A DNA stretch of 64,000 bases from Octopus sinensis (taxonomy: Eukaryota). Both the position numbers and the translations under genes were made by a program. This document shows, one piece after another, positions 23,559-59,314 of the stretch. Location of the stretch: NCBI RefSeq assembly GCF_006345805.1, contig NC_043001.1, forward strand, positions 68,572,001-68,636,000, written 5' to 3'. The notes below the pieces were generated by a model. That model saw only the letters and a list, made by a program, of their open reading frames with translations, was not told the DNA's origin and searched no databases. Positions within the stretch are counted from its first letter, which is position 1, and each line of letters begins with the position of its first letter.

Positions 23559-23609
23559 AGCTTCTACAGGACTAGAACTGTTTCATTCAAATGAAATCAT
23601 CAGGAAGCT
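23559..23609 (-). ncRNA. Type I hammerhead ribozyme motif (CUGAUGA core, GUA site)
   Basis: agcttc CTGATGA tttcatttgaat GAAA cag-ttctagtc-ctg TA gaagct; 6-bp stem I; stem II closing pair non-canonical. Confidence 0.7.
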
Positions 23610-24005
23610 TGCTTTCGAAGTAAGATCTGGCATTTATACATTTAGGCAGATTTAATGGGGTGGTGGTGGGGGACATTTTTGGGGTAAGCAGGGCACAAAC
23701 TGTCTTTCTTAGGGGAGTGGTCAAAAGAATCAGTGATAAAGTAAATAAATGAATAAATAGAATAATTGAATAGAGTTTTAGGTAAATTAGAAGAATATCG
23801 CTTTTAGTCAGTTTGTTGTTGTTGTTATTAAGTGGAGGGAAGAAGTAGATAAGTATACGTAAAAGAACATATAAAATAAATATACATACAAACCCACATA
23901 CATACACATACGAATATCCATATACATACATATACATATGCCCATGTATATACATACAGACACACACATACATACATATAAATACACTAGCACATATATA
24001 TATAT

Positions 24006-24040
<35 letters not shown>

Positions 24041-24580
24041 CAAATATATACACATACACATACATACACATACATACACATACACATATATACATACACA
24101 CATATATACAGATACACGTACACATACATGCAAACACGCAAACACACGCACACATATATCTACACATATATATATAAATATACACACCCATACACACACA
24201 CACATATATATATTTTTTTTCCTTTCTCTCCTCATCTTCCTCCCTTATTTTATTTTTATTTTTATTTTCCCTTGACCTTCTTTAAAATCATAAAAGGTAT
24301 AATATATGACCTACCTACCCGCCGACACACATTTAGTGGCGCTAGAGTAGACAAACGCCAAAAGTTCCTAGAACTCCCCAGGGTTCCAGCAGGCCTAAAT
24401 GAAATCCATCTACCGCTCCCCTCTCCCTTCCTTTATATCTCTTTACCCGCAGATACAAACGCAAATACTCACACACACACACACACTCACACGCACCCTC
24501 ATACACATACACAAACCCACATGTTCTCTCACTCATTTCCTCCTCATCCACTTATACATATGTATATATCTCTCTCTACA

Positions 24581-24633
<53 letters not shown>

Positions 24634-24801
24634 ATATACACACACAAGTACACATATGCATACATACATAAATGTACCCACTTTCACATAAACGTATACA
24701 TAACTATGTACACACAAACACACATATATAAACGTACTTCAGTACCACCACCCCATTAAATCTGCCTAAATGTATAAATGCCAGATCTTATTTCGACCGC
24801 A

Positions 24802-24851
24802 AGCTTCCTGATGATTCATTTGAATGAAACAGTTCTAGTCCTGTAGAAGCT
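24802..24851 (+). ncRNA. Type I hammerhead ribozyme motif, inverted partner of 23559-23609
   Basis: agcttc CTGATGA ttcatttgaat GAAA cag-ttctagtc-ctg TA gaagct, inside about 120-bp inverted arms 23549-23667 / 24744-24863. Confidence 0.7.
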
Positions 24852-24859
24852 CCTTCTAT

Positions 24860-24899
<40 letters not shown>

Positions 24900-24900
<1 letters not shown>

Positions 24901-25785
24901 ATAAGAATGAATGTTTTTATATATAATGAACGTGAAATACAGGAAGGGACGAACACGGAACACAGACAAATCTTCGAAGCCTTCAATCTTCAGTCAGACA
25001 CCGAATCATCATAGCAAATTTCGGCTGTTCAATTCTGATATTTGCTCCAACTCGGCCAGCCCCAAGAAAAAAACTAAGCTGTAAGCATTAGATTTCTTGG
25101 TAGAAGACAGGAATGTGAACGCACAAGACGGATGTAAATACAAGAGACGAAACGAAATTGAAAACAGTAATGAATAAACAAAATATATATAACGGTGGTT
25201 GTCATACGACTTTAGACCAAATGAGACAAAAACAACAACAACATAGCTGGCGTAGAAATAATTACCGTTTCGGTAGCGGGGACACATGTTGGTCGAGATA
25301 CGATGGCCAACAGAATGGTTTAAGAAGCAGCAGGTTGCAGGAGAGAGAGAGAAAGAGAGACAGATATATATATATATATATGTATCAACTAACATGCGTG
25401 AATGTATGTGAGTATATGCAGGAACATTTTATACCATAACGACGACAACGTCACATTTTGTATAAATTGTATTCCTGTCTGTGCGTGTATGAGTGTTGAT
25501 GTGTCTGTAAATGTGCGTGTTTCCGTGTTACGTGACTTATTAAACGCATACAGACATCTACACGTACATATAAATATGTGACGACTGATATGCCTAAATG
25601 TATTTATGTGAGTTCTAGAGGTGAAACGCTTGAAAAATAAAAAAAAGCAAATAAAAAGCAATGCGGTGCAAGGGTCAAAGCACATATAAAAGTACACATT
25701 TACTGCTCCATTACTAGTTAATAATTATTGCAAAGTTGTAATGTATTTACAATTACATATTTAACCTTATATTAAGAAATTGATC

Positions 25786-25820
<35 letters not shown>

Positions 25821-26660
25821 AGAGAACAAGATGTACGTTACGCCGTAATAATATATATATAAAAAATATATATAAAAATTCAAAATGGGACAAGAACGCA
25901 AACCACTCAAAGAGACGACACAAAAATCGGACGGGTCATTCGAAGCCTCTAATCTTCAGTCAAGAGCCGGATCATCCTAGCAATTTCGGCTGATTAATCT
26001 TGAGATCGCTCCGATCCGGCCAGCCCCAAGGAAAAACTAAGCTACGAGCATTAGATTTCATGGAAAAAGGATCGAATGTATACGAAACAAGGACAGAAAA
26101 ACGGACGATGCCACACGAATATAAATACAAAAAACAATAATAGTAATAACAGGACAAAAACAGCGGGTGTCTTACGACTTTAGACAGTTCAACTTAGCTT
26201 AGCTGGCGTATTTGGAAAAAAATGCCTTTACGGCAGACGAAGAAATCGATATTGTCGTGGCGGTGGTCAGAAGCCGAAAGGCTAGTTGACCGGCGGTCAC
26301 GTGAGAGGAGAAGAGAGAAAAAAAAAGGGGGCAAAGGAATCAAAGAGAGAGAGAAAAAGAGGGACAAAGGCACCAAAGGATGGGGAGAAGAGAGAGAAAG
26401 AAGGAATTAAAGAGGGGAGAAGAAAGAGAGCGTGCCAAAGATTGGCTTGACGACAGAATCAGTGAGGTGTAAAGTGAGAAAGACAGAGAAATGTGAGAGA
26501 GTGGGGGAAGAGGAAACCAAAGAATCAGAGGCGAGAAAAGAGAAAGACAGAGACTAGTGAAGTATAGAGAAAGTGTGTGTAGAAGTCGTACAATAGTGGA
26601 ATCCTTACATACATAAGAGAACAAGATGTACGTTACGCCGCAATAATATATGTATAAAAA
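24900..26660 (-). mobile_element. Two diverged copies of an unclassified repeat (about 24900-25345 and 25860-26400)
   Basis: Shared cgaagcct..aatcttcagtca..atttcggctg..ggccagccccaag..aactaagct..gcattagatttc; both in TA tracts; strand inferred. Confidence 0.6.
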
Positions 26661-27289
26661 AAATATATATATATAATTCTTGTTTCCCTGTAATAATTAT
26701 TGTGGCATTTACTGTTAAAATAGCTGTTCCATACATGTGCTTCGATTTCATTCATTTGCTTATATTTCGTCAATTTACACTGCATTCAAAAAATAGAGAC
26801 ATACTATATACATACCGCGCGATAAGCCATCAGAATTTACTTTTTCAAGTAATTCATTACTACATTTTGTCACTTTATATTTCTTATTCTAGCGACACAT
26901 CAGCAATTCAATGTCAACCCTTCGCCTTCTGCAACATTTCAACAGTTTACTTCCCCGTTGCCGTCTCCCGTTGCTGCCCATTTCTGGAATGTACTCACTT
27001 ACGTACACACGTCTCCATTACACCTCCATACAATGGGTCATGTTAGACAGAGCGCTGGGTCATGTTAGACAGAGCGCTGACCGCCTCAAAGGTGAGTATA
27101 TCCGCTGAAAGCCTTTCAGCGGTTTCAAAAATGACATACTCACCACACCCAATTTTCAATGATAGGTTAGGTTATGAAATACACCAAATGGACGTATTAC
27201 ATGTCGCTTAGTCGAATTAGACCATTTACTCCACACATGTTTTATCGTAAATGCTGGACTTTCCCGTGTCACCTGTTTCAGCATAACTG

Positions 27290-27347
<58 letters not shown>

Positions 27348-27446
27348 CTCTTAGGGTAGCAAAAATATTTATAGAAAAATTCTTTGTTATCAGAGATCTG
27401 CGAGAAGGAAAAATTTAGTCAATAGGCTATACATTATTCATAGAAA

Positions 27447-27817
27447 AATACAGTGTACATTCAAACACATAAGAGATTACCAATAATAGGAAATGTGACT
27501 CACTAGGAAGGGCAGTTAAAACTCCAAGCCACTAATAGCTGCAATATGATAAAAGTTTTTGGGCTAATTTTGAATGAAAATCGGCAATTTATTTACTGCC
27601 GGATAGTTCCGCATTTGCGCGGAGGATTCGAAAAATTATAAAATATAGACACGTGGTATGCTACTTATCGCCTGGGTAAATAGGGTAAATATTTTTACTT
27701 TTCATTTCCTTTCAGAATAGCAACTATTAGTGGCTTGGAGTTTTAACTGCTCTTTCTAGTGAGTCAAATTTCCTATTATTGGTAATCTCTTATGTGCTTG
27801 AATGTACACTGTATTCT
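27447..27817. repeat. Inverted repeat with about 95-bp arms (27447-27542 / 27720-27817)
   Basis: aatacagtgtacattcaa..actccaagccactaatag and its reverse complement; few mismatches. Confidence 0.85.
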
Positions 27818-27844
27818 TATTATATATATATATATATATTCTAT

Positions 27845-27889
<45 letters not shown>

Positions 27890-27961
27890 TTTTATATATA
27901 TATTTATATATATATATAGTTATATATATATTTATATATATATATATTTATATATATATTC

Positions 27962-27993
<32 letters not shown>

Positions 27994-27998
27994 CTATC

Positions 27999-28035
<37 letters not shown>

Positions 28036-28121
28036 CTATATATATATATATATAGTACTATATATATATATATATATTATATATATATCTATCTATCTAT
28101 ATATATATATAAATATTATAA

Positions 28122-28166
<45 letters not shown>

Positions 28167-28246
28167 ATATATATATATATATTATATATATGTATCTATA
28201 TATATATATATAATATAATATATATATATTTATATATATATGTATC

Positions 28247-28283
<37 letters not shown>

Positions 28284-28473
28284 ATATATATATATATATT
28301 TATATCTATCTATCTATCTATATATATATATATATATTTATATCTATCTATCTATCTATATATATTATATTTATATTTATATATATATCTATATATCTAT
28401 ATATATACTATATTTATATAATATCTATCTATATATATAATATATATATATATATTTATATATTCGATCTATC

Positions 28474-28508
<35 letters not shown>

Positions 28509-28674
28509 CTATATTATATATAAATTATATATATATATCTATCTATATATATATAAATTTATATATATATCTATATATATATATGATAATATATATATAT
28601 TTATATATATCCTATATATATATATATTATTATATATCTATCTATATATATAATATATTATATATATATCTATA

Positions 28675-28709
<35 letters not shown>

Positions 28710-28880
28710 TATATATATATATATTTATATATATTATATATATATATATAATATATATATTGATATATATATATATATATATAATCGATATATATATATA
28801 TATTTATATATATATATCTATATATATTTATATATATATCTATATATATTTATATATACATCTATATATATATATATCTT

Positions 28881-28933
<53 letters not shown>

Positions 28934-29060
28934 ATATCTATATATATTAATATATGTATATATATATATATCTCTCTCCTCTATATATATATATATCTAT
29001 ATATATATATATCTATATATATATCTATCTATATCTATCTATATATATATCTATATATAT
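27818..29060. repeat. Long imperfect (TA)n/(TATC)n tract
   Basis: Direct reading. Confidence 0.95.
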
Positions 29061-29129
29061 GTAGGTCCCGGGTTGATTCGGGGTTAACCACAGTAAATAA
29101 GGTACTCAATACATAGCAGAGTAAAATTA

Positions 29130-29232
29130 ATTTATTATATAGAAGGAGCTTCTACAGGACTAGAACTGTTTCATTCAAGAGAAATCTTCGAAACAGTTCT
29201 AGTCCTGTAGAAGCTCCTTCTATATAATAAAT
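29130..29232. repeat. Perfect 43-bp inverted repeat built from hammerhead halves
   Basis: Arms 29130-29172 and 29190-29232, 17-nt spacer; same family as 23470-23610. Confidence 0.9.
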
Positions 29233-29255
29233 ATATCTATATATCTATCTATCTA

Positions 29256-29296
<41 letters not shown>

Positions 29297-29368
29297 TATA
29301 TTTATATATATCTATATATATATAAATCTATATATATCTATATATATAAATCTATATATATCTATATC

Positions 29369-29421
<53 letters not shown>

Positions 29422-29603
29422 GCACCAGGTGGTGCTATTAAGTTAGACATGGCCTGGGCCAATAATGGCCGAAACATACCAAAGTATCAAAGTATCAAAG
29501 TATAATATATATATATATAATATATATATATTATATATATATATATTACTATAATATATATTATCTATATATATAATATTTAATATATATATCTATATCT
29601 ATA

Positions 29604-29634
<31 letters not shown>

Positions 29635-29640
29635 CTACTA

Positions 29641-29671
<31 letters not shown>

Positions 29672-29673
<2 letters not shown>

Positions 29674-31097
29674 AGAAAGTTGGTTTGTGAAAGCACGTGG
29701 GTGAATATATAGAAAAAAGTAAAGAGTGAAAAAACTACAGAAGGCTTAAATGTTAAAAAAGATATATATTTGCGTCAATATGTCTGAAGAATATTAGAAA
29801 ATTTAAAAAAAAATTTTTTTCTCTTATAATGACATAATTTAAAAGAAAGACCGGTTTCGCGTTTAGCTTTTCAAATTTCTTGTGACGTTATGTTTATGTT
29901 GAATAGAGTTATGTTTATGTTGAATAGAGTTATCGTTATGTTTATGATCAGAAGAGTTCTAAATAAGGGAAGGTAGTGAGGGATTTCTTCCGGTGTAAGG
30001 GAGATAATCGCTTAAAAATTTTTTCCTTTCCCTTGGTATGAATTACTCTGTATCACTATGTTCGGATGGTTGAGTCTGGGCTTGTACTTTTCAATGAAGA
30101 ATGTTTCCTTGTTTAGTCTAATTTGTGTTGATGATCCGAAGGCACATTGGTAAAATGGATAGATTAAAAATTGTGGTAGTAGTTGCTTTGCGCATTTCTC
30201 AATGTGCTCACTAAAAGGTATCATTCTATATTCTGGGAATGCAATCTGTTGTCGATGCAGTGTGCATCTACGTCTGAGTGATAGTCCCGTGGAACCCACG
30301 TAGTCTTGGTGGCAGCCCGAGCATTTTATGACATAAATTATGTTTTCAGAGGCACAAGTAAATTTAGATTTGATCTTGAATTTCTGTCCCTCTTTAAAGA
30401 GGAATTCTGATCCTTCTAGCAGGTTAGGACATGTTGCACAGTTCGATCTACCACATTTTTTTACTTTTGCATCCGTAATTTCAGAAGACAATTTTGCCTT
30501 TGTGAGAATCTTTTTAAGTGATTTAGGCTGTTTGTAGCTTTTAATGATTTGGTGTATGTTTAGAATTTTCTTTAATTTGGGGTCTTTATGAAGTATTGGT
30601 AAATTCTGGGTGATGATGGTGAAAGCTTCTTTGTTTCTGGGGTTGTATGTAGATATGTAAGGTAGTATTTTCGGGGAAGGTGTGTTGTTGTGTTGAGCTT
30701 TTCTTAAAGTTTCTATGTTGATTTCTGTTGCACGTCTGATCCCATCCTCTATGAGTTGAGCTCGGTAATGTCTGTCAATTAGGGTGTTTTTGAGTTCTTG
30801 CAGTCTAAAGTTCCTGGTATTTTGTTCTGACACTATTGTGCATATCCTTCTTGCAAGGTTGAAGGGGATGTTTGTTTTAGTGTGTCTTGGGTGGCATGAA
30901 TTAAGAAGAAGGTATTGTTTGGCGTCTGTGGCTTTGTAAAAATGTCTGTTTCTATTTTAAGGTTAATTTTTTTAATTAGTATATCCAAGAACGGGAGCTC
31001 CTTTTGGTTGTATTCCATTGTGAACTGTATATTTGGGTTTATGCTATTCAATATGTTTTTAAAGTTTAGGAGTTTGTGTTTTCATTCCAGAGAATAA
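29672..31097 (-). mobile_element. 5'-truncated Penelope-like element: RT thumb, GIY-YIG endonuclease and pseudo-LTR
   Basis: IQFTME..ELPFLDILI, CGRSNCATC, NIIYVIKCSGCHQDYVGSTG, KYKPRLN; frameshift near 30920; TA flanks. Confidence 0.9.
29843..29881 (-). ncRNA. Minimal type I hammerhead motif in the PLE pseudo-LTR, U3-A8 variant
   Basis: aagaaa t TTGAAAA gc-taaac-gc GAAA ccgg TC tttctt; one extra U before the core. Confidence 0.65.
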
Positions 31098-31124
31098 AAC
31101 ATATATATATATATATTATATATA

Positions 31125-32151: not shown

Positions 32152-32193
32152 GCTACAGACGCGTTTCGGGGTATTGCCCCTTTTCAATGCAGC
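32152..32193 (-). ncRNA. Minimal type I hammerhead ribozyme (U3-A8), inverted copy
   Basis: Exact reverse complement of 32397-32438. Confidence 0.8.
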
Positions 32194-32396
32194 GTAGCCA
32201 GACCATTTATAAGAATGCCATATTAGTATGGCGATAACTATTATTTTCCGGAAACGCTGCCGTTGTTCTCTTTTAGAGAGACTTAGTAATTTTAATATTT
32301 CTATTATTGAAAACAAGTGGATGTATGCCACCGAAGCTAGGTAAATAAAACCTTCGAACAGAGTTTGTCAGAAGCGACACCTACTGGTCTGGCTAC

Positions 32397-32438
32397 GCTG
32401 CATTGAAAAGGGGCAATACCCCGAAACGCGTCTGTAGC
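32397..32438 (+). ncRNA. Minimal type I hammerhead ribozyme (U3-A8, GUC site, cut after 32432)
   Basis: gctgca TTGAAAA gggg-caata-cccc GAAA cgcg TC tgtagc; 6-bp stem I, 4-bp stem II, palindromic ACGCGT. Confidence 0.82.
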
Positions 32439-32759
32439 TGCCGGTCAAATAGTGTGGAGCGACTGATCTCCCTTGTTCGAAGGTTATATGGATACAGTTT
32501 GTGTATCAAATAGCTAACTTAAGGCGATGGCCTCATGGGGCTAATAAGCGGACAGCTTTATTCTTATTTTTATAAGAATGCCATATTAGTATGGCGATAA
32601 CTATTATTTTCCGGAAACGCTGCCGTTGTTCTCTTTTAGAGAGACTTAGTAATTTTAATATTTCTATTATTGAAAACAAGTGGATGTATGCCACCGAAGC
32701 TAGGTAAATAAAACCTTCGAACAGAGTTTGTCAGAAGCGACACCTACTGGTCTGGCTAC

Positions 32760-32801
32760 GCTGCATTGAAAAGGGGCAATACCCCGAAACGCGTCTGTAG
32801 C
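32760..32801 (+). ncRNA. Minimal type I hammerhead ribozyme (U3-A8, cut after 32795)
   Basis: Identical to 32397-32438, 363 nt downstream. Confidence 0.82.
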
Positions 32802-33029
32802 TGCCGGTCAAGTAGTGTGGAGCGACTGACTCCCTTGTTCGAAGGTTATATGGATACAGTTTGTGTATCAAATAGCTAACTTAAGGCGATGGCCTCATGG
32901 GGCTAATAAGCGGACAGCTTTATTCTTATTTTTATAAGAATGCCATATTAGTATGGCGATAACTATTATATCTATATATATATATATATATATATATAGA
33001 TATATATTTATATATTTATACCAATTTAA

Positions 33030-40550: not shown

Positions 40551-41202
40551 GTATATATACATACACACATACATACATACATACATACATACATACATAC
40601 ATACATACATACATACATACATACATACATAATACATATATATATATATATATATATAATATCTTCTTCTTCTTGACCCCCTTCGGTCATGAATGACCAT
40701 GGGATTGCACCTGGAAAGTCACCCTCCGAGGCATAAATCTGGGCAATAATTTTTTATGGAAGACCAGCAGTCGCCCATGCATACCAGCCTCCCCTCTTCA
40801 CGCCACCAATGTTATCCAAGGGAAGGCAAAGGCTGATACAGCTTGGCACCAGTGACATCGCAGCTCATTTGTTAACGTGCAAGTGGCTGAGCACTCCACA
40901 GACATGTGTTCCCTTAACGTAGTTCTTGGGGAGATTCAGCATGACACAGAGTGTGACAAGGCTGGCCCTTTGAAATACAGGTACCATAGAAACAGGAAGA
41001 AAGAGTGAGAGAAAGTTGTGGTGAAAGAGTACAGCAGGGTTCACCACCCCACTGCCGGAGACTCGTGGAGCTTTAGGTGTTTCCGTTCAATAAACACTCG
41101 CAATGCCCCGTCTGGGAATCGAAACCGCGATCCTACGACCGTGAGTCCGCTACCCTAATCACTGGGACATTCCGCCTGCCTCTCTCTCTCTACACACACA
41201 CA

Positions 41203-41245
<43 letters not shown>

Positions 41246-41487
41246 ATATACACACACGTATATATGTATGGGAAAAGTAAAAAGGAGATATACATACAAA
41301 CAAATTTGTGATGCAATTAAGAAGTATAAAAATCATTATTATCAGTCATTACAGAATCATACCTGTTTCGTCAGAGCTGGTCACTGACTTTGGATCAACA
41401 CAATTTCCGTTATATATATATATATATATATACACATACATACATACATAATACATACATACATACATACAATACATACATACATAC

Positions 41488-41532
<45 letters not shown>

Positions 41533-42370
41533 TATATAATATCTTCTTCTTCTTGACCCCCTTCGGTCATGAATGACCATGGGATTGCACCTGGAAAGTC
41601 ACCCTCCGAGGCATAAATCTGGGCAATAATTTTTTATGGAAGACCAGCAGTCGCCCATGCATACCAGCCTCCCCTCTTCACGCCACCAATGTTATCCAAG
41701 GGAAAGGCAAAGGCTGATACAGCTTGGCACCAGTGACATCGCAGCTCATTTGTTAACGTGCAAGTGGCTGAGCACTCCACAGACATGTGTTCCCTTAACG
41801 TAGTTCTTGGGGAGATTCAGCATGACACAGAGTGTGACAAGGCTGGCCCTTTGAAATACAGGTACCATAGAAACAGGAAGAAAGAGTGAGAGAAAGTTGT
41901 GGTGAAAGAGTACAGCAGGGTTCACCACCCCACTTCCGGAGACTCGTGGAGCTTTAGGTGTTTCCGTTCAATAAACACTCGCAATGCCCCGTCTGGGAAT
42001 CGAAACCGCGATCCTACGACCGTGAGTCCGCTACCCTAATCACTGGGACATTCCGCCTGCCTCTCTCTCTCTACACACACACACACACATACACACACAC
42101 ACACAACACACACACACACACAAACACACATATACACACACGTATATATGTATGGGAAAAGTAAAAAGGAGATATACATACAAACAAATTTGTGATGCAA
42201 TTAAGAAGTATAAAAATCATTATTATCAGTCATTACAGAATCATACCTGTTTCGTCAGAGCTGGTCACTGACTTTGGATCAACACAAATTTCCGTTATAT
42301 ATATATATATATATACACATACATACATACATACATACATACATACATACATACATACATACATACATAC

Positions 42371-42420
<50 letters not shown>
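40550..42420. repeat. Near-identical tandem duplication, period about 881-884 bp
   Basis: Identical ORFs at 40865 and 41746; breakpoints in (TACA)n(TA)n. Confidence 0.9.
40662..41177 (-). mobile_element. tRNA-derived SINE, apparently chimeric; duplicate at about 41543-42058
   Basis: Head aggcggaatgtcccagtgattagg..gtttcgattccc; 3' half matches the tail of the 43562 SINE; (AAG)n tail. Confidence 0.75.
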
Positions 42421-42424
<4 letters not shown>

Positions 42425-42957
42425 ATAGGATAAAACTTTTTTCGGGAAAAAATTTTTATCAATGGCCCAGTATATCAAAAAATGCCTTTAAAGCTCAAAT
42501 TTATACATAATTTACAAGATAAGGGCAGAAGAAAAATTCTAATGCCAAATATGCCGAAGCAAAAATTTTTTGTCGATAACCATTAAAATTTATGCGTCTC
42601 GAAATAAACCGATAGAAATCTCAAAAAAATTCGTTATTACAGTATTGGTCCAATTTTGGGGTTAATTCATAAGAAATTTTCCCCTCTTCAGCGGCAAATA
42701 CGCAAGATATAAATGAAATACTTACTCATACCCAAGAAAAAGCAAGCACCACATCCCGAGCAGACTTAAGTACCCAAAATATATACAAAATAGAAAAAAT
42801 CTTCGGCGCACCTCGAGACACGTGTGATTCGAAGAAATCTCTAAAAAATTCGTTATTACCGTATTGGTCCAATTTCGGTGTTAATTCATAAGAATTTAGA
42901 GATTTCTATCGGTTTATTTCGAGACGCATAAATTTTAATGGTTATCGACAAAAAATG

Positions 42958-43561: not shown

Positions 43562-43866
43562 AAGGCGCATGGCTCAGTGGTTAGAGCATCGAGCTTACGA
43601 TCGTGAAGGAGTGAGTTCGATTCCCGGACCGGGCTGCATGTTGTGTTCTTGAGCAAGACACTTTATTTCACGTTGCTCCAGTTAACTCAGCTGTAGAAAT
43701 GAGTTGCGACATCACTGGTCCCAAGCTGTATCGGCTTTTGCCTTTTCCCTTGCATAACATCAGTGGCGACTGCTGGCCTTCCATAAACAACCTTGCCCGA
43801 ACTTGTGCTTCGGAGGGTAACTTTCTAGGTGCAGTCCCCTGGTCATTCATGACCGAAGGGGGTCTC
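43562..43866 (+). mobile_element. tRNA-derived SINE with probable target-site duplication
   Basis: A box TGGCTCAGTGG, B box GTTCGATTCC; ctcttatctct (43547) and ctcctatctct (43870). Confidence 0.85.
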
Positions 43867-44196
43867 CTCCTCCTATCTCTAGCAATGCTGGTGCTGAGTT
43901 GCACCCTTAATCGCATTCTTGACGATTGTATTTGCGCCTTTTGGTTTTGAAATTCCGTCTAGCCACTTAATAATTTTATAATTCTCACTTTATCATTTTA
44001 CTGAATCAGTCTCTATTTCCTATGGTATATTCTATAAACTTGTGGGTTCCAGGTCCTCGGATCCATAAGAGTAAACAAGAGAGACAGAGACAGGCAGAAA
44101 TAAGGAAAATGCCCCTTGTATTTGAATACTATGCAAATATTCTTTTAAAAAGCTTTTCTTGTAATTTTACCAAAAAGTAATTGTTTTCCATACTTA

Positions 44197-44232
44197 CAGT
44201 TGAAAAAGTCTCAATGACTGAAACCGGTACTG
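44197..44232 (+). ncRNA. Minimal type I hammerhead motif (U3-A8, GUA site)
   Basis: cag TTGAAAA agtc-tcaat-gact GAAA ccgg TA ctg; about 50 nt upstream of (TA)n. Confidence 0.65.
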
Positions 44233-45939: not shown

Positions 45940-48080
45940 GAACACTACGAAACTCAACACCTTGTTAAATGCCGACCAAGTAACCCCAGAGTGGGTAACA
46001 TTGAGTAGGACATTGCTGTGCCTGAAAAACATAAAAAAGGCAATACGGTAGACAATTACAGGCCCGATATCCTGTTTGCCACAATTGTGGAAGTTATTAA
46101 CTGGAATACTCGCAGAGTCATGTACGAACATCTGGAAAAAATGGAGTCCTGCCACATGAGCAGAAGGGTTGCAAGCGTAAATGCAGACAAAACTATACTT
46201 AGAGACTGCAAGAGGAGTAAAAGTAACTTAGCTATCTCATGAATCGACTATCGTAAGGCGAACGATATGATCTCATATTCTTGGATTATGGAGTGTATGA
46301 GCCTATTTTGAATTGCATCGAATGTTGAGCGATTGCTTGGAAAAAGTATGGCAAATTGGAAGGTGGAACTGACAGCATACAGAAGACGTTTAGGGGCAGT
46401 TGAAATTAGGAGAGGCATCTTCCAAGGGGACTGCCTGTCCCCACTGATCTTTGTACTGCGCTTGATATCACTAACACTGATTCTGAGAAAAGCAAAAGCT
46501 GGGTATGTATTCAAAATCCGTCAACAAAAAATCAACCATATGTTATTCATGGATGACCTCAAACTTTATGGTAAAGATGAAGCCCAAGTCAGGTCCCTCC
46601 TTGGTACGGTGTATACCTTCAGTGCTGATATCAGAATGGAGTTCGGACTGAGAAAGTGTGGTGTGTTAGTCTTGAAGAGAGGCAAATTCAAATGTATGGA
46701 CGGGTTAACGATACCGTCGGGGGAGGTTGTGAAGCAGATAGAAGAGAAGGGCTATAAGTACTTGGGATTTTGGAAATGGATAAATTGATGGAAAAAGAAA
46801 TGACAGAAAAGTTTAAGGTGGAGTACTTGCCCAAACTGAGACTGATTCTTAAGTCGAAATTAAACGGACGGAATAAGATCGAAGCTGTCAACACCTGGGC
46901 AGTTTTACTCCTTATATATGGAGCAGGAGTAATCGCATGGGCTGTAGACGAACTAAACAGCTTAGACAGAAAGACAAGGAAGTTGCTAACTAGATATGGA
47001 ACACTCCACCCAAAAGGTGACACAGACAGGCTGCATGTACCAAGCAAATGGGTGGGGGAGAAGACTTATTGGATGCGAACACAGCATTAGAGCAGAAGAA
47101 AGCAACATAGCATGTTATGTAAAAAAATGCCACAGAAGCGCTATTATTATAAGTACGAAGGCCAGGCTGGTGTAGGATGAAAGATTGCAAAGATAAAGCA
47201 CTATACAAGAAATTGAAAACAAATGAAAATGAAAATAGGTGGGTAAAGAAATGAATGGAAGGTCAATTTCATAGGGATGTTGAAGATTAGACAGACAGAG
47301 AAAAAAGATAGCTGTGGATGACTAAAAGTGATTCAAAACCGGAAACGGATGTTCTAATCTGTGTTGCTCAAGAGCAAGCACTAAGAACAAACTACATAAA
47401 ATACCGAATAGACAACGCAGCAGAAAGTGATAAGTGCAGAATCTGTGGACAAAACGGCGAAACCGTATGGCATATTACCAGTCAATGTACACCACTAGTC
47501 CAAAAGGAGTATAAGAGACCCCACGACAATATAGCCAGGCTTGTGCATTGGACACTTTGCAACAAGTATGGTTTTAACAGAGTAAAAAATTGGTACGGCC
47601 ACAAACCTGAATGCATAATCGAAAATGATAATGCAAAGATCCTATGGGATTTTATGATTCAGTGCGACTATGAGATAGAGAATAGGAAGCCAGACATAGT
47701 CTTACGTGACAAAGAAAACAAACTGTGCTGGCTCATATTTTAGTATGCCCTGTTGACAACAAGGTATGCGATAAGGAAGAAAGAAAAGTCGAGAAATATG
47801 ACAGGTTAGCTTGAGAAGTTTAGCAGTTGTAGTCGATGAAAAAGGTAGTACTAATACCAATACTTGTCGGAGCCCTGGGAACAGTGAGAAAAAATCTCGA
47901 GAAGTACGTGGAACAAATAGGGGCCGCAATAAGGGTGGAGCACATGTAGAAAACACGACTGCTTGGAACCGCTCGAATAGTCTGGAAAGTGCTCGAAATA
48001 TAAGAAATGTTACCATAGATCAATGGTAGTGAACAGCTGACACCATAGTACATCTCCAGCATTAGAATCTGTGCAAAGAA
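45940..48080 (+). mobile_element. R4/Dong-like RLE retrotransposon, family C, 5'-truncated
   Basis: GIFQGDCLSP, FMDDLKLY, CRICGQNGETVWHITSQC, RPHDNI, KPDIV; (TAA)n tail. Confidence 0.9.
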
Positions 48081-48135: not shown

Positions 48136-51100
48136 TAAGTTGGTTTTAAAATTTGAGACTACATAGAGAGTGTTTTACGTAGGGTATGGGGAGTTCCCAT
48201 GAGCATTATCTCTTGAATATCTGTCATTTTGGAGATTTCCTGGTATATGAGCCACGTAGCAATCAGCCCCTTTTGCTATCATTCCTAGAGTACCTGTGAC
48301 AACAGGTATTGTTTTAGTTTTGAGGTTCCACATTATGCCAATTTCTATTTCAAGATCTTTATATTTGCTCAGATTTCTGTAGGTCTTGACAGATACATTT
48401 ATGTCGATTGGAAGAATCATATCAATGAGGAGTTATGATTTTTGTCTGAAATCTCTCAATATAATGTCTTGCCTTTTGGCATCTATCTTTCTGCCAGTTT
48501 GAATGGTGAAGTTCCAGAGGAATGAGATGTGATCATTTTCAAGACTGGAGGTGGTTTGTGTTCCAACCAGATTTTATCTGTGGCAGGTTCAGTTTTTTGC
48601 AAATTACCCGGTGAATATATTGTGCTGTTGAGATACTGTGCAGGCGCATGAAGACTGCACATGGAGACAACATGATCAATGGTTTCATTTTGTTGTTTGC
48701 ATACACGACATGTTGGGCTACTGTCGTTCTTTAATATGTTGACCTGGTAGTTCCTCATATGTTGGCATTGATCTCCGGCTGCTATGATAAACCCTTCTGT
48801 TTCTGATTTTAATCCAGATGACACTAACCATTGTTGGGTAAAGGATTTGTCAACATCGGCATTATTCGCTGCTTGAGTATTTGGCATTCAGAGGTTTTAC
48901 TTGCCATTTATCAATAAGAATATCTATGGCAGCAGTTTTAGCACGGCTTTTCATACGCTTAGCATTTTCTGTGCTTGTTTCCAGTATGTCTAATTCTGGG
49001 ATTTGTTGCATTTGTAATTCACTTGCATCTTCTCTTACCAGTTTTAATACTGAGTATGATGCTTTCTTGTTTTCATGTTTTAAGATAAGTTTTAACATCC
49101 ATTCATCATAGTTTTTCAGGTAAGTGTTGAGATCAACTGTGTCAATCTTCATTGTTATTGCCATTTGTAAAAGTCTACGGCCACCCTATTTTCTTGGCAG
49201 GTAAAGTCGTTCTATATCTATCTTAGGGTGGCGCATTCTATGCATTGTCAACAACTTTCGTATTTTTCTGTCGAGATTACATATTCCAATCGTTGATCAG
49301 TTAATCCTATTGAAACTGTAAGTCACGACTGGTATGGCTAAAGTATTGATTGTTTCGATCCTGTTTCTTGCATTCTGCTATATCTTGTGGTGTATTACCC
49401 TTACCCTGCGATAACATTCTCTTCCGATCCTTTCTCTCATCATTGAATGTTTGTTTCCATCACCTTTCCGCTGTTCTTAACTCTTTTATGACATGCTGCT
49501 TGTCGAGAGTAATGTTGGATGTTTCTGTCATTTTTCATTTTGCACATTTATCGAGGCCAAATTGCCTCCTGATGTCATCACTGAATTGTTTACCAATTGC
49601 TAGCAAGCCTTGTAGTTGTTGTCGTTTTTTGCAAAGAGCTTTAAATCATCTTGTAATGATGATTTATATTTTTATCAAACATTTTATAGCCATAATGTAC
49701 ATCATTGAGCAATTTCGAGAGAGGAATTAAGGCTAGACAAAAGAGGGATGGTGATAGAGAGTCACTTTAGAAAATGCCACATGAAATACTTACATCTCCA
49801 GCATTGAGATTCATTGTCACTGTTCAAAGTCAGTGTAGTTCTGCATGATCTCATACTTACAGACAAGCAGTTTCGCAGAGTCATTTTATACATTTCCAGA
49901 CCTATCTTAATCCAATTGTATGGAGATTTTATAGCCTATCCAGGCTATCGACAACTTTTTATGTCGTTTGTGACAATCTTCCAAGTTCATCGTATTGATG
50001 AATTGCTGATCTTTACAATTATAGGCCCCACGTCTATATCCTTTATGCTCATTATGGAATATGCCACCTTTCATTTAAAAACTATAGACTATAGATACAT
50101 TCAGTCAAGACAGATGTCATTATTTTATACATTGTTGTTAAGCAGGTTATCGGTCTATAACGTTTTTGTTCATTCGTTTCTTCATTTGTTGGAAGTAGGA
50201 ATGTTACACTATTCACAGGTCAAGAGGGAATCATATTAGGTGGTTGCAAAACATCGTTGTAAACTTTTGTTAACAGTCCATGACTCAACCAGAGTATAGG
50301 AATTTTATCCTTTCCTGGAGACTTCCATTTGCTTGACCTCCCGAGAGGAGATCTTACATCCTCTATCTTGATACCATCCCAATTTTGCTCTTCTAAGGAG
50401 TCTAAGTCAGTAGTTATTCTATCCGTCCAAGGAGCCTTTATATTATGTTTTTTCTTCTGGCCAAATTTTATTCCATAATTCCTGCATATCTTCTTTTGAT
50501 GGGACACACTCTACTGTAACTAATATTTTCCCTATCATCCTGTAAAAAAATTTTGGGTTATTTTTGAACATGTTGCCCTTGAAGAATCTAACACGCTTTT
50601 CATACCTTCCTATGCGGGCAGCTTTAGCACATACCTTTTGCTTGGTAGTTTAGTTTCTATGGTGGTATCGATGTCAAGTATGGTTTTTCTTTAACTTCCA
50701 GATTTTTGTTAGTTTGATACTCTTGTCAAACTTAGGTTTTTTTAAATTCTATGTCAGACCTAAGTAGCTGAATTTGTTCTTCAATATGCTCTGGCCAAGT
50801 AGGCTTTTTGTGGGAATGTTGTCGTTTTCTAATCTTTTCATCACATACAGTCGTTGAGATTTTCGCGAATGCATAGTACAGATGGTTGAGATCTGAAATG
50901 CCAACGTCATTAGCTGAAATGATATACTTAAGTGCAAGGCAGATTTTACCAATTACTTTCAGATTTTGGTTAGAGTTGCGAATTTTCGGGAAAGTGACAC
51001 GTTCATTCATACTGGTTACTTTGATTTTCAGCCATTCAATCATGATTTGATTTTTTTTAGATCATCTCATTCACTTGGGTCAATTTCTATGTGACTTACT

Positions 51101-52344: not shown

Positions 52345-52545
52345 CATATATCATAGAGCATCATACAAAATCATACGACATCATACGACATTATAACGCA
52401 TCATACAACATCATAGATCATATACCACCATTCAACATCGTAAAACATCATAAAACATCATCCAGCAACATACATCATTCATCATACATAAAATTTATTC
52501 AACCAACATCATACAGCTTCACACAAAGTCATACATCTTCATGCA
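52345..52545. repeat. Degenerate minisatellite, about 10-bp unit (catcatacaa)
   Basis: Direct reading. Confidence 0.7.
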
Positions 52546-53260: not shown

Positions 53261-55829
53261 TCTAACTGTAGCGTGCGATGGTTGAAGTTATGTTTTCTTA
53301 GAAGGAGTAACTGACCATAACTTTGTGGCAGTTGAAGTGTTTATAGTACATATGTATTCAAGGAAATTATTTTAGTTTCGTTTACGAAGCCCCTAGATAT
53401 GTTAGTTGAAAAGCTAGGTTGCATAGTTGACTGAATCAGATTATCCTTTTGGCTACAACATTCACTAAAATTAATTCCGTAAATTCTTTTTATACGAAAA
53501 CCGTTTTTATACCTTACCATATGTAAATTCCTCTCTCTCTCTCTCTCTGTTGTGTTTTTAAAACTCACCTTGTAAAGGCATACACTAATATAATCAGTAA
53601 AACTAGTATACGTAATCGTTTGCTATGTGAGAGCACAGCTTCATAGTTTTAATTTCATGAATATAAATATATCGACAAATTTATTTAACACCTGTGTAAA
53701 GTCAAATATATTATTCGTCTAATCTTTTGCAAGTTTCATCTCAAGGACAGTGGCGTTGCTGGGGCACCGTTCACTGTATAAATCTTGAACGCACGTCAAC
53801 CACTTATTCTTTTTCTTAAAATAGGTGTGTGTATGTGTGTGTGCGTGCGTGCCTCCGTGTGTGTGTGTGTGTGTATGTAATATAACTTCAGCAGACTGGC
53901 AGACACATTTTCACATTTTATTGCCTAATTCAGGCCAGATACAGTTGTTCGATGGCTACTTTGATATATGTATACAGAGATTTATATTGTCTCAAATGTA
54001 CACTTTACATTAACAGACTGCAGGATGGGATGATGTTAGACCAAGAAGCAAAATTTAGTTACCTAATACTTGAATTTTAACGATTAATAGAAATTATCTA
54101 ATTAAATAATTACCTAATTGATTAGCAATTATTCTTTTATGTTAATTAATATTGTAGAATTGTTTTTGTTAAATAGATGCTTAAGATTAATAGACACCGA
54201 TTACATATCTTGTGCAAGCAGAATAAGTTTGAGTTATCGTTGTAGAATTCGTAGTATTGCTGGTGTAATAGTGGTAATATTTTTGGAAGGGCTGTAGTAG
54301 TAGTATTGACATTGCCAGTAGTGATCATGGTATTAGTAACGTAAGTATCAGTGTTGGGATTGTAGTAGTGGTAGTAGAAGTAGTTGTAGTTAAGTTGTAT
54401 TTATAGTTGGTGTTAGATAGTTTTCTATTTTTTATAGTTGTGCAAGTTACACTCTATGATGATAATAACGGCGATGACGACGACGACAATGATGACCATG
54501 ATGATGATGATGTCGGTGGTGTTGTTGGTGTTGGTGGTGGTGGTGGTGATGATGATGATATGATGATGATGATGATGATGATGATGAGATGCTGGTTGTT
54601 ATCATGACAGAGGCTACGATCATGATGATGATGAGGAGGAGGAAGAGGAGGCAATATGACGGTAGGTTGTTACAGTTAATGAAGAAATTACAATAAAAAA
54701 GCAAATGAGAGCATGATCAACAGTAAGATATCAATAATTAATTACCAAGATTTCTCACCAACTTGCAATAGAAGACGACAGGGCAAAAGAAGAGATTTAA
54801 TTAAATTAAAATAAAACCAATAATTGTGCAGGAGGTTGTGAAATATTATGAGCAGTTTTATAGCTGTTTCCAATCTCTTAGTAGGAAAGCTGCGTAATTA
54901 GGGTAATACCTCGCCCCCAAAATGAGAAACGATGGAATCGCTTGCATACGTTCTAGGGATAATTATAGTCCTTGGCAATATAGCCTTTGTCATTGTTCTC
55001 TGAATCTAGTAATTGCTTGCTTGACCAAATAATAAGGTTAACTAACCACTAATATTTTCCCTAATCACAGCATTTAATCATACTGTGGTCAATGCTGATG
55101 CTAAAAACATCGGAAATAATCAATTCCACTATATTATTACGTCACCATCTGGTCAGATTCCCTTTATAATTACATGTTCAATTATTTCTCCGTTGTCAGT
55201 CGATGTTTTGCGAATATTCTTTACAGTGAGTCAATTATTACATTGCCAATAAACAATGGTATCTCTCCTTCCTCTAGCGAATGTTAATGACAGCAACTTT
55301 TTGAGTTTTGTCCCTTGCTAGCTCTACCAAATAATAAGACCTGATATTCTCATGATTAAATTAAACTTCACTCTGATCATTTATGATGTCGAAAACAGGC
55401 ATAATCATGCTTTTACTGATAACTTCTCAGCCTGTTTTTGAATAAGACTGGTCATCTCATTCACACCACACTCCATAAATTAAAAGTTCGCATTGAACTA
55501 TGATACGCTGTATTTTACAAGGACTAAACTTTGATATCCTTTCAGGTGAAAAAAGTTCCAGGTAAAAAGCTTTATTTGCATGAACTGTCCAACATCTGAA
55601 GACAAGATATTATATTACTTATGCCTCTACAAAATAATTCTCTTTATATGTTTATAGGGTACTGGCAGTAAGGAAAATTCTATGATCATTTAAAAAAAGC
55701 ACAAGACTTGGAAGTTTACCGAAAAACATCAAATGTATGAGTACAATTTCTATTTGGTTTTTGTATAGAATTTATTCGGTTCAGAAACTTGGCGTGGTGC
55801 TTTCCATTTATATTTTCGACCTTTTCAAG

Positions 55830-56602
55830 ATAGTCAATAAGGGCAATGCATATGCATCACAAAACCTGAGGCCATCACAATCCCTGCATATGAAACAACA
55901 TTGGTCTTCTTTGGAATAGGCGAGGAGAGAAGTTTACATTGCATGGATTGTCGCAAAGTGATGAATCCAAAACTCATGAAGGGTTAGGGAACATTAAAAA
56001 AAATCAGCTAGATCTGCCTCAGAAATATCAGGGTTTCCCATGATGTAATCCGTGTGGTACGCTTTTGACCAGGTGTCAGAAGTCGTGGCACGCATCAAGC
56101 CGAAACGTTCGTCATTCCAAGTTCATTGTGTAGTAATTCTTTCTTCACTTACATGATATAATGATAGCATTACTTATTTGATTTATAGTGTGCCGTCTGT
56201 CATTCATCACCATGTGGTGAGCACGGTCAATGTATTTCTCGATGGTGTCAGTTGCAGGGTTTCCAGACTTTGGGTCATCTTCAAGCTTCTCCATTCCCCT
56301 ACTAAATTCAGCTGTTCACTTTTGCACTGTTGATAACACTGGAGCATCATTTCCTACCGTGGCAACCAAGTCAGCATGAATGTCCTTGCGAGCTAAATCC
56401 TTTTTAGTAGGTGCTTGATACTAGCACAGTGCCAAATTTTCTTGATTTTCAAGAGACGTTACTACTACATATTTTTGAGGTTGTCAAATGTCAGTTTACC
56501 TGGGATGAAACAATTAATAATTTGAAATGGATGCATGGGAGATTTCACAGCACTACATTGATTCTTCATAGTCAGCATACGAACCTCTCAGCTCTCCCTC
56601 AT
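55830..56602 (-). mobile_element. mariner transposon remnant
   Basis: DIHADLVAT, STVQK, LEDDPKSG.P, CVPRLLTPGQK (WVPxxL motif); TIR-like tatgagggagagctgagagg. Confidence 0.8.
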
Positions 56603-56611
56603 ACATGTATA

Positions 56612-56643
<32 letters not shown>

Positions 56644-57458
56644 CGAGAAAGAAGCAACAAGAATGGATTAGTTTTTAGTACAATTGTTTCATACAAAGAC
56701 AGGCTTTATATATATATATATATACATACATACATGTATATATGCATATATGGATACAGGGCATCACAAAACGTAAACAACATGAAATACGGAGTACGAA
56801 TACATGGAAAACGAACTATTTTTATGCGAACAACGAAAGAAACAAATGGAAAACAATACAGGTAACATACAGAACGACCTTCATCAGGTGTCGGCTGTTA
56901 TTCTACTCCATATTTCGAGCAACTCACGACAAGATGTGCCATCGAGAAAACATTTGCTTCCGCGAACCAAAATAGTATTTGGGATTTGCGGAGGATCAAA
57001 GTTGGTAACGAAAACAGGACAGTGAAAATAAAACAGTGAAAACAAACAGTGAGGGATGCTGAGCCATACGAGGTAAGGTGGCGAACACTAGACGAACAAG
57101 CTTTGATAGGAGAAAAGACAGGAGAGGAGACAGAGAAAAATGCGTCTGGTCTGTGATAGAGACCGAAAGAAAAGGAAGATGATCGAGTGAGGAAAAGATG
57201 GCTGCTGGTCACGTGTGAGCAAACGAGAGAGTAAAAGAAGAAGAGTGAGAGAGAGAGAGGGACAGATAGAAAACGATGAAGGGGAGAAAACATTAGAGAA
57301 AGTTAGAGAGAGAAAACGAAAGGGAGAAAAGGGGAGAAAAAATGGAGAGAGGACGAGAAAAGAATGAGAGGGAGGAAAGAGAAAAAGAGAAGAGTACAGG
57401 TTAGAGTCGCATCGAAATTATTAAGATGAACTTACTTGGAAATAGATGCGTGACATTC

Positions 57459-57490
<32 letters not shown>

Positions 57491-57559
57491 TAATATATAT
57501 ATATATGTGTGTGTGTGTGTATGTGTGTAGGAGTAGGAGTGGCTGTTTGGTAAGTATAA

Positions 57560-57955
57560 GCGTAGGAGTGGCTGTGTTGTGAGTAGCTTGCTTACTAACC
57601 ACATGGTTCCGGGTTCAGTCGCACTGCATGGCACTTTGGGCAAGTGTCTTCTACTATAGCCTCAGACATTGTGAGTGGATTTGGTAGACGGAAACGGAAA
57701 GAAGCCCGTGGTATATATGTATGTATATATATATATGTATGTGAGTGTGTATATGTTGTGTGTCTGTGTTTGTCCTCCCAACATCGCATGACAACCGATG
57801 CTGGTATGTTTACGTCCCCGTAACTTAGCGGTTCGGCAAAAGAGACCGATAGAATAGGTACTAGGCTTACAAAGAATAAGTTCTGGGGTCGATTTACTCA
57901 ACTAAAGGCGGTGATCCAGCATGGCCACAGTCAAATGAATAAAACAAGTAAAAGA
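57560..57955 (+). mobile_element. tRNA-derived SINE, family of 1978-2520; partial copies at about 37060-37215 and 63685-63845
   Basis: gcgtaggagtggctgtg..ggttccgggttcagtc..ttgggcaagtgtcttctactatagcc..gatttggtagacggaaac. Confidence 0.8.
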
Positions 57956-58195
57956 GAGTGAAAGAGTGTAGGGAGAATTCACAAAAAATGAAGACAGGTG
58001 ATGTAGACAACAAACAGATGTATTAGTTTAATGCTCAGGAAGTGAAAAAGTCTTTAACGCTTCGAGCCTACTCTCTTCCACAGAAAGGAACACAGAAAGA
58101 AACAAGGAGAGAAAATAAAGGATTTGTAGTTGCTAGCGATCCATCATAGAGAGTGATGCATGCATATATACATACATATATGTACATACTTACAC

Positions 58196-58228
<33 letters not shown>

Positions 58229-58397
58229 TGTATGTATGTATGTATGTATATATATATATATATAAGAAAATAGTAAAGAGTGAAAAAACGACAGAAGGCT
58301 TAAATGTTAAAGAATATATATAGTTGCGTCAATATGTCTGGAGAATATTGGAAAAATTTTTTTCCCTTCTTATAATGACATAATTTTATAATTTTTA

Positions 58398-58436
58398 AAG
58401 AAAGACCGGTTTCGCATTTAGCTCTTCAAATTTCTT
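58398..58436 (-). ncRNA. Minimal hammerhead motif (U3.G8) in the inverted pseudo-LTR
   Basis: aagaaa t TTGAAGA gc-taaat-gc GAAA ccgg TC tttctt. Confidence 0.65.
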
Positions 58437-59276
58437 GCGACGTAATGTTTCTCTTTAATATCGTTATCCTTGTTTTTTTGCTTTCAACACAACAACACAC
58501 CTTCCCCAAAAATACTACCTTACATATCTACATACAACCCCAGAAACAAAGAAGCTTTCACCATCATCACCCAGAATTTACCAATACTTCATAAAAACCC
58601 CAAATTAAGGAAATTTCTAAACATACACCAAATCATTAAAAGCTACAAACAGCCTAATCACTTAAAAAGATTCTCACAAAGGCAAAATTGTCTTCTGAAA
58701 TTACGGATGCCAAAAGTAAAAAGATGTGGTAGATCGAACTGTGCAACATGTCCTAACCTACAAGAAGGATCAGAATCTTCTTTAAAGAGGGACAGAAATT
58801 CAAGATCAAATCTAACTTTACTTGTGCCTCGAAAACAAATTTATGTCATAAAATGCTCGGGCTGCCACCAAGATTACGTGGGTTCCACGGGACTATCACT
58901 CAGACGTAGATGCACACTGCATCGACAACAGATTGCATTCCCAGAATATAGAATGATACCTTTTAGTGAGCACATAGAGAATGCGCAAAGCAACTACAAC
59001 CACAATTTTTAATCTTTCCATTTTACCAATGTGCTTTCGGATCATCAACACAAATTAGACTAAACAAGGAAACATTCTTCATTGAAAAGTACAACCCAGA
59101 CTCAACTATCCAAACATAATAATACAGAAAATTCACACTAAGAGAAAAAGGGAAAAAAAAAATTTTAAGCGATTATCTCCCTTACACCGGAAGAAATCAC
59201 GCACTACCTTCCCTTATTTAGAACTCTCCGTAGCAAAAAACAAGGATAACGCTATTAAAGATAAACATTACCTCGC

Positions 59277-59314
59277 AAGAAATTGAAGAGCTAAATGCGA
59301 AACCGGTCTTTCTT
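59277..59314 (+). ncRNA. Minimal hammerhead motif (U3.G8, GUC site)
   Basis: aagaaa TTGAAGA gc-taaat-gc GAAA ccgg TC tttctt. Confidence 0.72.

Follow-up and report, generated by a model that had tools for sequence, protein, structure and literature searches.

Twelve hammerhead ribozyme motifs occur within 36 kb of a 64,000-nucleotide stretch of the Octopus sinensis genome (RefSeq assembly GCF_006345805.1, contig NC_043001.1, forward-strand positions 68,572,001 to 68,636,000; hereafter the window). They trace back to about seven insertions in six unrelated sequences, designated families A to F. Judged by their sequences, the motifs are minimal type-I hammerheads with a short stem III, of the kind carried by Penelope-like elements (PLEs), and they mostly represent known biology. 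Very probably, several unrelated PLE families inserted into (TA)n tracts, most copies being 5'-truncated 3' pseudo-long terminal repeats (pseudo-LTRs) with a minimal type-I hammerhead, and each family has its own base pair between core positions 3 and 8. One part of this picture, the natural G3-C8 pair of family F, may be undescribed.

Motif detection and comparison with shuffled sequence

The window has a GC content of 34% and contains dense (TA)n, (ATT)n and (AC)n tracts, decayed LINEs (long interspersed nuclear elements) along with repeats resembling short interspersed nuclear elements (SINEs). Both strands were searched with a type-I hammerhead descriptor that left positions 3, 7 and 8 unconstrained, and dinucleotide shuffles in 500-bp blocks served as controls. 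Only the strict rule was set before the candidates were seen; the medium, loose, short-stem-III and one-mismatch rules were shaped afterwards. The strict descriptor gave six matches (A twice, C three times and B3) against a mean of 0.083 per shuffle (60 shuffles, maximum 1). With the medium and loose descriptors, 9 and 11 matches were obtained against 0.28 (maximum 2) and 2.1 (maximum 6) per shuffle, again over 60 shuffles each, and the reversed sequence yielded 0 strict, 0 medium and 4 loose matches. The short-stem-III rule recovered nine motifs (three each of B and C, D, and two of F) against 0.02 per shuffle in 300 shuffles. A rule requiring one core mismatch together with strong stems selected family E alone in the window and produced 1 match in 80 shuffles. 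A looser first scan had also returned weak, chance-like matches with unpaired cores outside the six families, all of which fail the later strict, medium and loose rules. An earlier sequence-only reading of this DNA had listed 12 cores; all are present, its coordinates marking motif edges rather than position 3. It had also proposed counting variant cores genome-wide against shuffled sequence; within the window, such a count shows a clear excess, with every real match paired at 3-8.

The conserved core (U4 G5 A6, A9, G12 A13 A14 and the A15.1-U16.1 pair) and the NUH triplet are present in 11 of the 12 motifs, the exception being E1, which has a G12A change. Stem I, within which the ends are joined, comprises 5-6 pairs in A, B, C and E and 3 in D, and stem II is reduced to 2 bp in B and 1-2 bp in F. 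A BLAST comparison within the window detected no cross-similarity among the six family sequences. The same kind of search found no second copy of D in the window, and D is therefore not shown to be a repeat family; the unrelatedness of the six sequences, as proposed earlier, stands. A single insertion accounts for all three C motifs, another for B2 and B3, and another for the inverted pair A1 and A2; F1 and F2 lie within one tandem duplication.

Of 203 window matches to Rfam covariance models, the 150 listed include no hammerhead family. Scans focused on A1, C, D and E gave none either; B and F were covered by the window-wide scan only. The Rfam output consists of microsatellite-driven microRNA matches and chance matches.

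The 3-8 pair

Positions 3 and 8 can pair in all 12 motifs (10 Watson-Crick, 2 U-G), as had been read from the listed motifs, compared with 35-41% of the shuffled matches. For six families, we calculate the probability that all are paired by chance as about 0.002-0.005. No motif with an unpaired 3-8 combination was found in the window under the strict, medium, loose, short-stem-III or one-mismatch descriptors. The pair is C3-G8 in A and E, U3-A8 in C and D, U3-A8 or U3-G8 in B, and G3-C8 in F, placing four different pairs (C-G, U-A, U-G and G-C) side by side. The active fold calls for a pair at this site, whatever its bases, and each family would therefore have settled on a version of its own: C-G for A and E, U-A for B, C and D, and G-C for F.

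The variation within families is one-sided. In the three copies of B, position 8 is A in B1 and G in B2 and B3, with U3 constant. No two-sided change inside any one family was seen among the window copies or the F contig variants described below, and positions 3 and 8 of F have no variant among those listed in an incomplete variant table. Since U3 is constant while position 8 toggles, covariation within a family is not shown; the earlier description of the pair as co-varying holds across unrelated families but not inside one. A metagenome scan for non-C3 cores with an ACGCGU stem III passed 3 of 120 listed matches (at least 119 loci) through the stem filter. The single real-looking match is a nested C3-G8 motif, and the scan is thus silent on covariation. 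That match (L024:301-330), on an AT-rich metagenome contig, is a hammerhead with the canonical C3-G8 pair, a short stem III and a stem II of 6 bp.

Family F, a candidate G3-C8 hammerhead

The two F motifs of the window lie in an approximately 880-bp tandem duplication (40663-42427, 99.6% identical) that also contains SINE-like sequence and microsatellites and is either a recent event or an assembly artefact. Contigs from four sequencing runs (X1, X3, X7 and X8; organism codes A-D; 4 of the 24 listed) were aligned to 42152-42296. On these 145 bases, 54, 63, 52 and 22 contigs aligned in X1, X3, X7 and X8, most of them less than 95% alike, which indicates that F is multi-copy. In X1, X7 and X8, all covering depth at 42248 has the base needed for a palindromic stem III (ACCGGU), as has 395/443 in X3. 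Beyond 42240, the loose ends of 11, 11, 6 and 3 contigs, in the same order, gave a 30-letter consensus with an agreement of 0.71-0.79. These ends supply two bases missing from the window copy and, with the 5' strand taken from that copy, form an in-register stem I of 7 bp in the family form versus 5 bp in the window copy. The loose-end core is GUGAACA (G3-C8) in both X1 and X3, with a different N7 from the C of the window. Stem II is closed by G10.1-C11.1 in X1, X3, X7 and the window, with a second pair in the X1 reading only. The family reading derives from noisy consensus rows rather than full aligned copies, no piece spanning the whole stretch. Related F copies repair both defects of the window copy as a hammerhead predicts, and G3-C8 looks like a family trait.

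The GUGACCA cores, which had been listed as merely possible, thus gain support from multi-copy contigs with a palindromic stem III and an in-register stem I. Palindromic or nearly palindromic stems III had been noted in most motifs; for F, the implied stem III is the wrong one, the family using the short palindrome. Two other readings of F were discarded. A long hairpin with a 5-bp stem III and an extra A after the cut site is ruled out by the contigs showing the short palindrome, and an internal CUGACGA lacks a stem II or a GAAA after it. A broader claim can be made tentatively, a little short of an even case: that F represents a natural G3-C8 hammerhead, active despite a stem II of 1-2 bp, fixed in a multi-copy family of several related species and unpublished. 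With its neighbours it would put four different 3-8 pairs into one genome, and standard CUGANGA descriptors would miss most hammerheads of the lineage. Such descriptors miss four of the six families in the window.

Insertion anatomy and the PLE of family B

Family B alone in the window is tied to a PLE open reading frame (ORF). Its main frame comprises 314 codons (30012-30956, minus strand), and the upstream frame also matches PLE homologs. The 314-codon frame has 56 homologs, RVT_1 and GIY-YIG proteins among them, and in an alignment with 7 of these 56 the residues C168/C173/C176 and C212/C215/H234/H251 are invariant. The window protein has no GIY-YIG Pfam match at E 0.01; its homologs carry this domain. 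The invariant CX4CxxC linker and CCHH motif identify the element as a Neptune/Nematis PLE by the traits described for that group (PMC8557442). The nearest homolog is 96% identical, and the Octopus bimaculoides homolog is 56% identical over 39% of the query. B1, which has an extra U at 2a, a 2-bp stem II, a palindromic ACCGGU stem III and a GUC triplet, lies about 130 nt downstream of the stop codon. A 21-bp tandem repeat (2.7 copies, 29887-29942) stands directly upstream of B1 and is absent from B2 and B3. The B3 element runs at its 3' end into a 100-N gap (59385-59484), which hides its (TA)n junction. In metagenome contigs, none of 101 pattern matches was confirmed as a locus related to the PLE protein.

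BLAST and inspection revealed inverted 5'-truncated partners with unequal ends in A, B, C and E. The offsets are about 70 nt in both A insertions, about 37 nt for B1 beyond B2, about 54 nt for C1 beyond C3 and about 130 nt for E1 beyond its inverted piece. No inverted partner was seen for D or F in the window, each of which has a TA tract on one side. Described traits of PLEs include copies that are inverted and 5'-truncated, a tail of 30-40 bp and insertion targeted to microsatellites (PMC8557442; PMC11167929). Ten of 15 element ends are at most 10 nt from (TA)4+, versus 3.5% of non-tract positions, the ends having been placed by masked BLAST and visual inspection, a procedure that favours tract edges. 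Of 15 whole or half motifs, 13 are within 341 nt of (TA)6+, the background being 31% of non-tract positions at a distance of up to 300 nt. C2 (506 nt) and B3 (1019 nt) are the two exceptions to the earlier statement that all motifs lie near (TA)n. Nearness alone is weak evidence, since the tracts are dense in the window.

Features of the window

The positions of the motifs and of the associated features are given in Table 1.

Table 1. Hammerhead motifs and related features in window coordinates; N3 denotes core position 3.
Feature	Position	Strand	Remarks
A1 hammerhead	23559..23609	-	N3 at 23603; CUGAUGA, C3-G8
A2 hammerhead	24802..24851	+	N3 at 24808; back-to-back partner of A1
Second family A insertion	29059..29232		Two inverted hammerhead 3' halves between (TA)n tracts, no CUGA core
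B1 hammerhead	29843..29881	-	N3 at 29874; U3-A8
PLE ORF, Neptune/Nematis type	30012..31075	-	5'-truncated, frameshifted; reverse transcriptase C-terminus, CX4CxxC linker, GIY-YIG with CCHH
C1 hammerhead	32152..32193	-	N3 at 32187; in inverted 5'-truncated copy
Family C tandem units, 363 bp	32206..32969	+	C2 32397-32438, N3 32403; C3 32760-32801, N3 32766
F1 hammerhead	41355..41391	-	N3 at 41384; GUGACCA, G3-C8, decayed copy
F2 hammerhead	42239..42275	-	G3 at 42268, C8 at 42263, N17 at 42244; duplicate of F1
E1 hammerhead	42637..42697	-	N3 at 42691; CUGAAGA, C3-G8
E2, family E 3' half	42856..42897	-	Truncated sister copy 42833-42897; cut at inversion junction
D hammerhead	44197..44232	+	N3 at 44200; U3-A8, short-stem-III rule
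B2 hammerhead	58398..58436	-	N3 at 58429; U3-G8 wobble, extra U at 2a, inverted 5' copy
Second family B PLE ORF fragment and 3' untranslated region	58484..59221	+	Frameshifted; BLAST match
B3 hammerhead	59277..59314	+	N3 at 59283; U3-G8 wobble, no 2a insertion

A1 has a 6-bp stem I, a stem II that starts with a U-U mismatch, a 4-bp stem III with a CUAG-centred 8-nt loop and a GUA cleavage triplet. In A2, stem II is one base shorter and the end at (TA)n comes about 70 nt earlier. The second A insertion shares both of its end points with A1 and A2. C1 combines U3-A8 with a 4-bp GC stem II, an ACGCGU stem III and GUC. D has a 4-bp stem II, an ACCGGU stem III, GUA and a stem I of just 3 bp. The 5' strand of this stem is the CAG of a pyrimidine-rich stretch resembling a 3' splice site (44180-44199, plus strand). 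Helix I is where the intron of the Drosophila virilis Penelope element ends (PMC4209133), and a similar placement could explain the short stem I of D.

E1 has a long stem II, a palindromic 5-bp stem III and an AUA triplet. It reads AAAA in place of GAAA and has one stem-I mismatch. Its sister copy E2 keeps GAAA, and the stem-I strand of E2 is fully complementary to the 5' strand of E1. G12 is critical for the hammerhead (PMC8495972), and E1 is, on its sequence, catalytically defective. The window copies of E1, F1 and F2 are read as decayed, as are perhaps B2 and B3. A GTAAGT resembling a 5' splice site occurs at 42720-42725 on the minus strand, about 30 nt upstream of the E1 core, and a further family E 3' tail (23267-23400, about 82% identical, without a hammerhead) adjoins the family A insertion.

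The surrounding repeat field includes two pairs of decayed LINEs (7364-9116 with 48136-49914, and 11406-13541 with 45945-48078; 79% direct, 84% inverted) with RVT_1 and a weak zf-RVT match. The tRNA-like head of a probable SINE lies at 43569-43629, where a tRNA-shaped Rfam model matches weakly.

Proposed mechanism and evidence against it

Several unrelated PLE families, autonomous or not, would have inserted into the (TA)n tracts of a microsatellite-rich repeat field. In most insertions, 5' truncation would have left nothing but the 3' pseudo-LTR and the minimal type-I hammerhead within it. A palindromic stem III of 2-3 bp would lead these motifs to cut as dimers in tandem transcripts. This cutting would be slow and probably assisted by protein, the element's own, in processing the element RNA. 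Minimal hammerheads of PLEs have been found not to cut as monomers and to cut weakly as dimers (PMC4209133), and the hammerhead of the anole Poseidon PLE requires the protein of the element (PMC11167929). In vitro, neither C3G nor G8C alone leaves this hammerhead active, and the C3G/G8C double mutant regains part of the activity (PMC11167929). Dimer cleavage and any role in transposition are inferred for the window motifs, and the U3-G8 copies would probably be weak cleavers.

Several observations weigh against these proposals. Monomer folds are not more stable than those of shuffled sequences (z from -1.6 to +0.95), which leaves the energies uninformative, and the monomers of D and F prefer other folds. 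When two copies were cofolded for each of seven motifs, a double-hammerhead with intermolecular stems I and III appeared in B1 and B3 only. D and E1 formed an intermolecular stem III, A1, C2 and F2 adopted other folds, and neither these three nor E1 gave a double-hammerhead. B1 and B2 carry an insertion at 2a, of a type that impairs cleavage elsewhere (PMC3088659). Cleavage by the hammerhead is also dispensable for PLE insertion in vitro (PMC11167929). A tblastn search with 7 of the 56 B homologs found no coding remnant near A, C, D, E or F, whose window copies are short 3' ends, and it is thus their anatomy that suggests a PLE origin. For the G3-C8 trait of F, the six loose-end contigs of X7 keep G3 and C8 and have U at position 6, the three of X8 keep G3 and lack C8, stem II has just 1-2 bp, and the consensus agreement is as low as that given above.

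Alternative explanations

Some families, C above all, may be non-LTR retrozymes that make small circular RNAs with borrowed PLE enzymes, and not pseudo-LTR stubs of full PLEs. We regard this as a credible minority reading. Family C consists of two 99.4%-identical 363-bp units in a retrozyme-like tandem, each with one intact type-I hammerhead, together with a partial copy in inverse orientation; the tblastn search above revealed no trace of coding sequence near it. Animal non-LTR retrozymes have the same arrangement, with units of 350-390 bp in mussel (PMC7229834), and a preprint derives animal retrozymes from PLE pseudo-LTRs (10.64898/2026.07.22.740005). However, published retrozymes have canonical type-I hammerheads, and C differs from them in having just two units and an inverted copy and a U3-A8 core (PMC7229834); the inverted copy and unequal ends of its insertion are PLE-like. 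Retrozymes may themselves be non-autonomous PLEs, so the two readings overlap.

It is rather unlikely, though to be taken seriously, that the motifs descend from true hammerheads and that the cores departing from the canonical form (U3-G8 in B, G3-C8 in F and G12A in E) reflect drift in dead or passive repeats that no longer cut, the ribozyme being a dispensable passenger. Such drift would fit the loss of G12 in E1 with its retention in the sister copy, the loss of the palindrome and of two stem-I bases in the window copies of F, and the departure of B2 and B3 from B1 on one side of the pair only. The weak cleavage by PLE minimal hammerheads (PMC4209133) and its dispensability in vitro (PMC11167929) also point this way. 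Drift, however, does not readily account for the absence of unpaired 3-8 motifs under any descriptor used. Moreover, G3-C8 takes two changes and is read at the family level in two, and partly three, organism codes with N7 varying, and a U3-G8 family is already in print (PMC4209133, Fig. S3).

Coincidence in repetitive, AT-rich sequence, with the tally swollen by duplicates and a tuned descriptor, is a very improbable source of the motifs: core and GAAA words are common (one metagenome match in the 120 had convincing stems), the loose descriptor finds matches in shuffled sequence, most descriptors are post hoc and Rfam is blank, but the excess under the strict rule spans three families and already makes chance unlikely for A, B and C, the F family data mend both F defects as a hammerhead predicts, the E sister copy restores G12, and B sits where PLE hammerheads sit.

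Relation to known hammerheads

The closest known counterparts are the minimal hammerheads of metazoan PLEs described by Cervera and De la Pena in 2014, with about 1,300 U3-A8 motifs in Schistosoma mansoni and a U3-G8 family of Saccoglossus, UUGAAGAA, in Fig. S3 (PMC4209133). Shared features are the type-I topology, a tiny palindromic stem III, a pseudo-LTR site 3' of the ORF, pairs on opposite strands, many unrelated families per genome, and U3-A8 and U3-G8 cores. Those families have long stems II, against 1-2 bp in B and F, and have between positions 9 and 10.1 an extra base that B, C, D and F lack. Among the Fig. S3 rows and the supplement text covered, neither a G3-C8 core nor the word octopus was found (PMC4209133). 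The natural variants of Perreault et al. (2011) share U3-A8, a U10.1-U11.1 mismatch (A), a stem II of 1-2 bp (B and F) and 2a insertions (B1 and B2); in the available text, U3-A8 is the sole natural covariation named, and the ribozymes are mostly microbial or from phages (PMC3088659). In the axolotl HHR_Amex2, too, stem II has a U-U mismatch at its base (PMC7229834). Hammerheads reported by Lunse, Weinberg and Breaker (RNA Biol 14:1499; via PMC6765202) resemble those described here in PLE association, short stem III and dimer cleavage.

Endonuclease-positive Neptune/Nematis PLEs (PMC8557442) and the anole Poseidon element (PMC11167929) share with the elements of the window a CX2-5CxxC linker, a CCHH GIY-YIG domain, inverted 5'-truncated copies, a terminal tail and microsatellite or AT-rich targets. 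The tails here measure about 37 to about 130 nt versus the 30-40 bp described (PMC8557442; PMC11167929). G3-C8 is an engineered mutant in the anole Poseidon PLE (PMC11167929) and appears to be a natural family trait in F. In the literature covered, only engineered G3-C8 variants and no natural one were found (PMC3884650, PMC8495972, PMC11167929); the main short-stem-III survey (Lunse et al.) and some supplements, which lay outside this comparison, may list it.

An annotation of octopus repeats counts active Penelope families, and its main text, as far as available, does not contain the words ribozyme or hammerhead (PMC13282606). A literature search pairing hammerhead ribozymes with cephalopod returned no paper. 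Dimer action, opposite-strand pairs, microsatellite targeting and palindromic stem III are already in print (PMC4209133; PMC3088659; PMC8557442). The sequence-only reading had inferred a dense, under-annotated field of ribozymes rich in non-canonical cores; the density, these cores and the blindness of Rfam are borne out, and the novelty of U3-A8, U3-G8 and palindromic stem III is not.

Significance

The finding mostly extends the minimal hammerheads of PLEs to a lineage for which no hammerhead report was found. Fixed-core descriptors and Rfam would thus undercount animal ribozymes. Of greater weight is family F: the G3-C8 swap is a classic engineered control that gives only partial rescue, and a natural multi-copy family, if true, would mean that this pair is sufficient for selection to keep. 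Natural F sequences would allow tests of a trade-off between the 3-8 pair, a vestigial stem II and help from protein.

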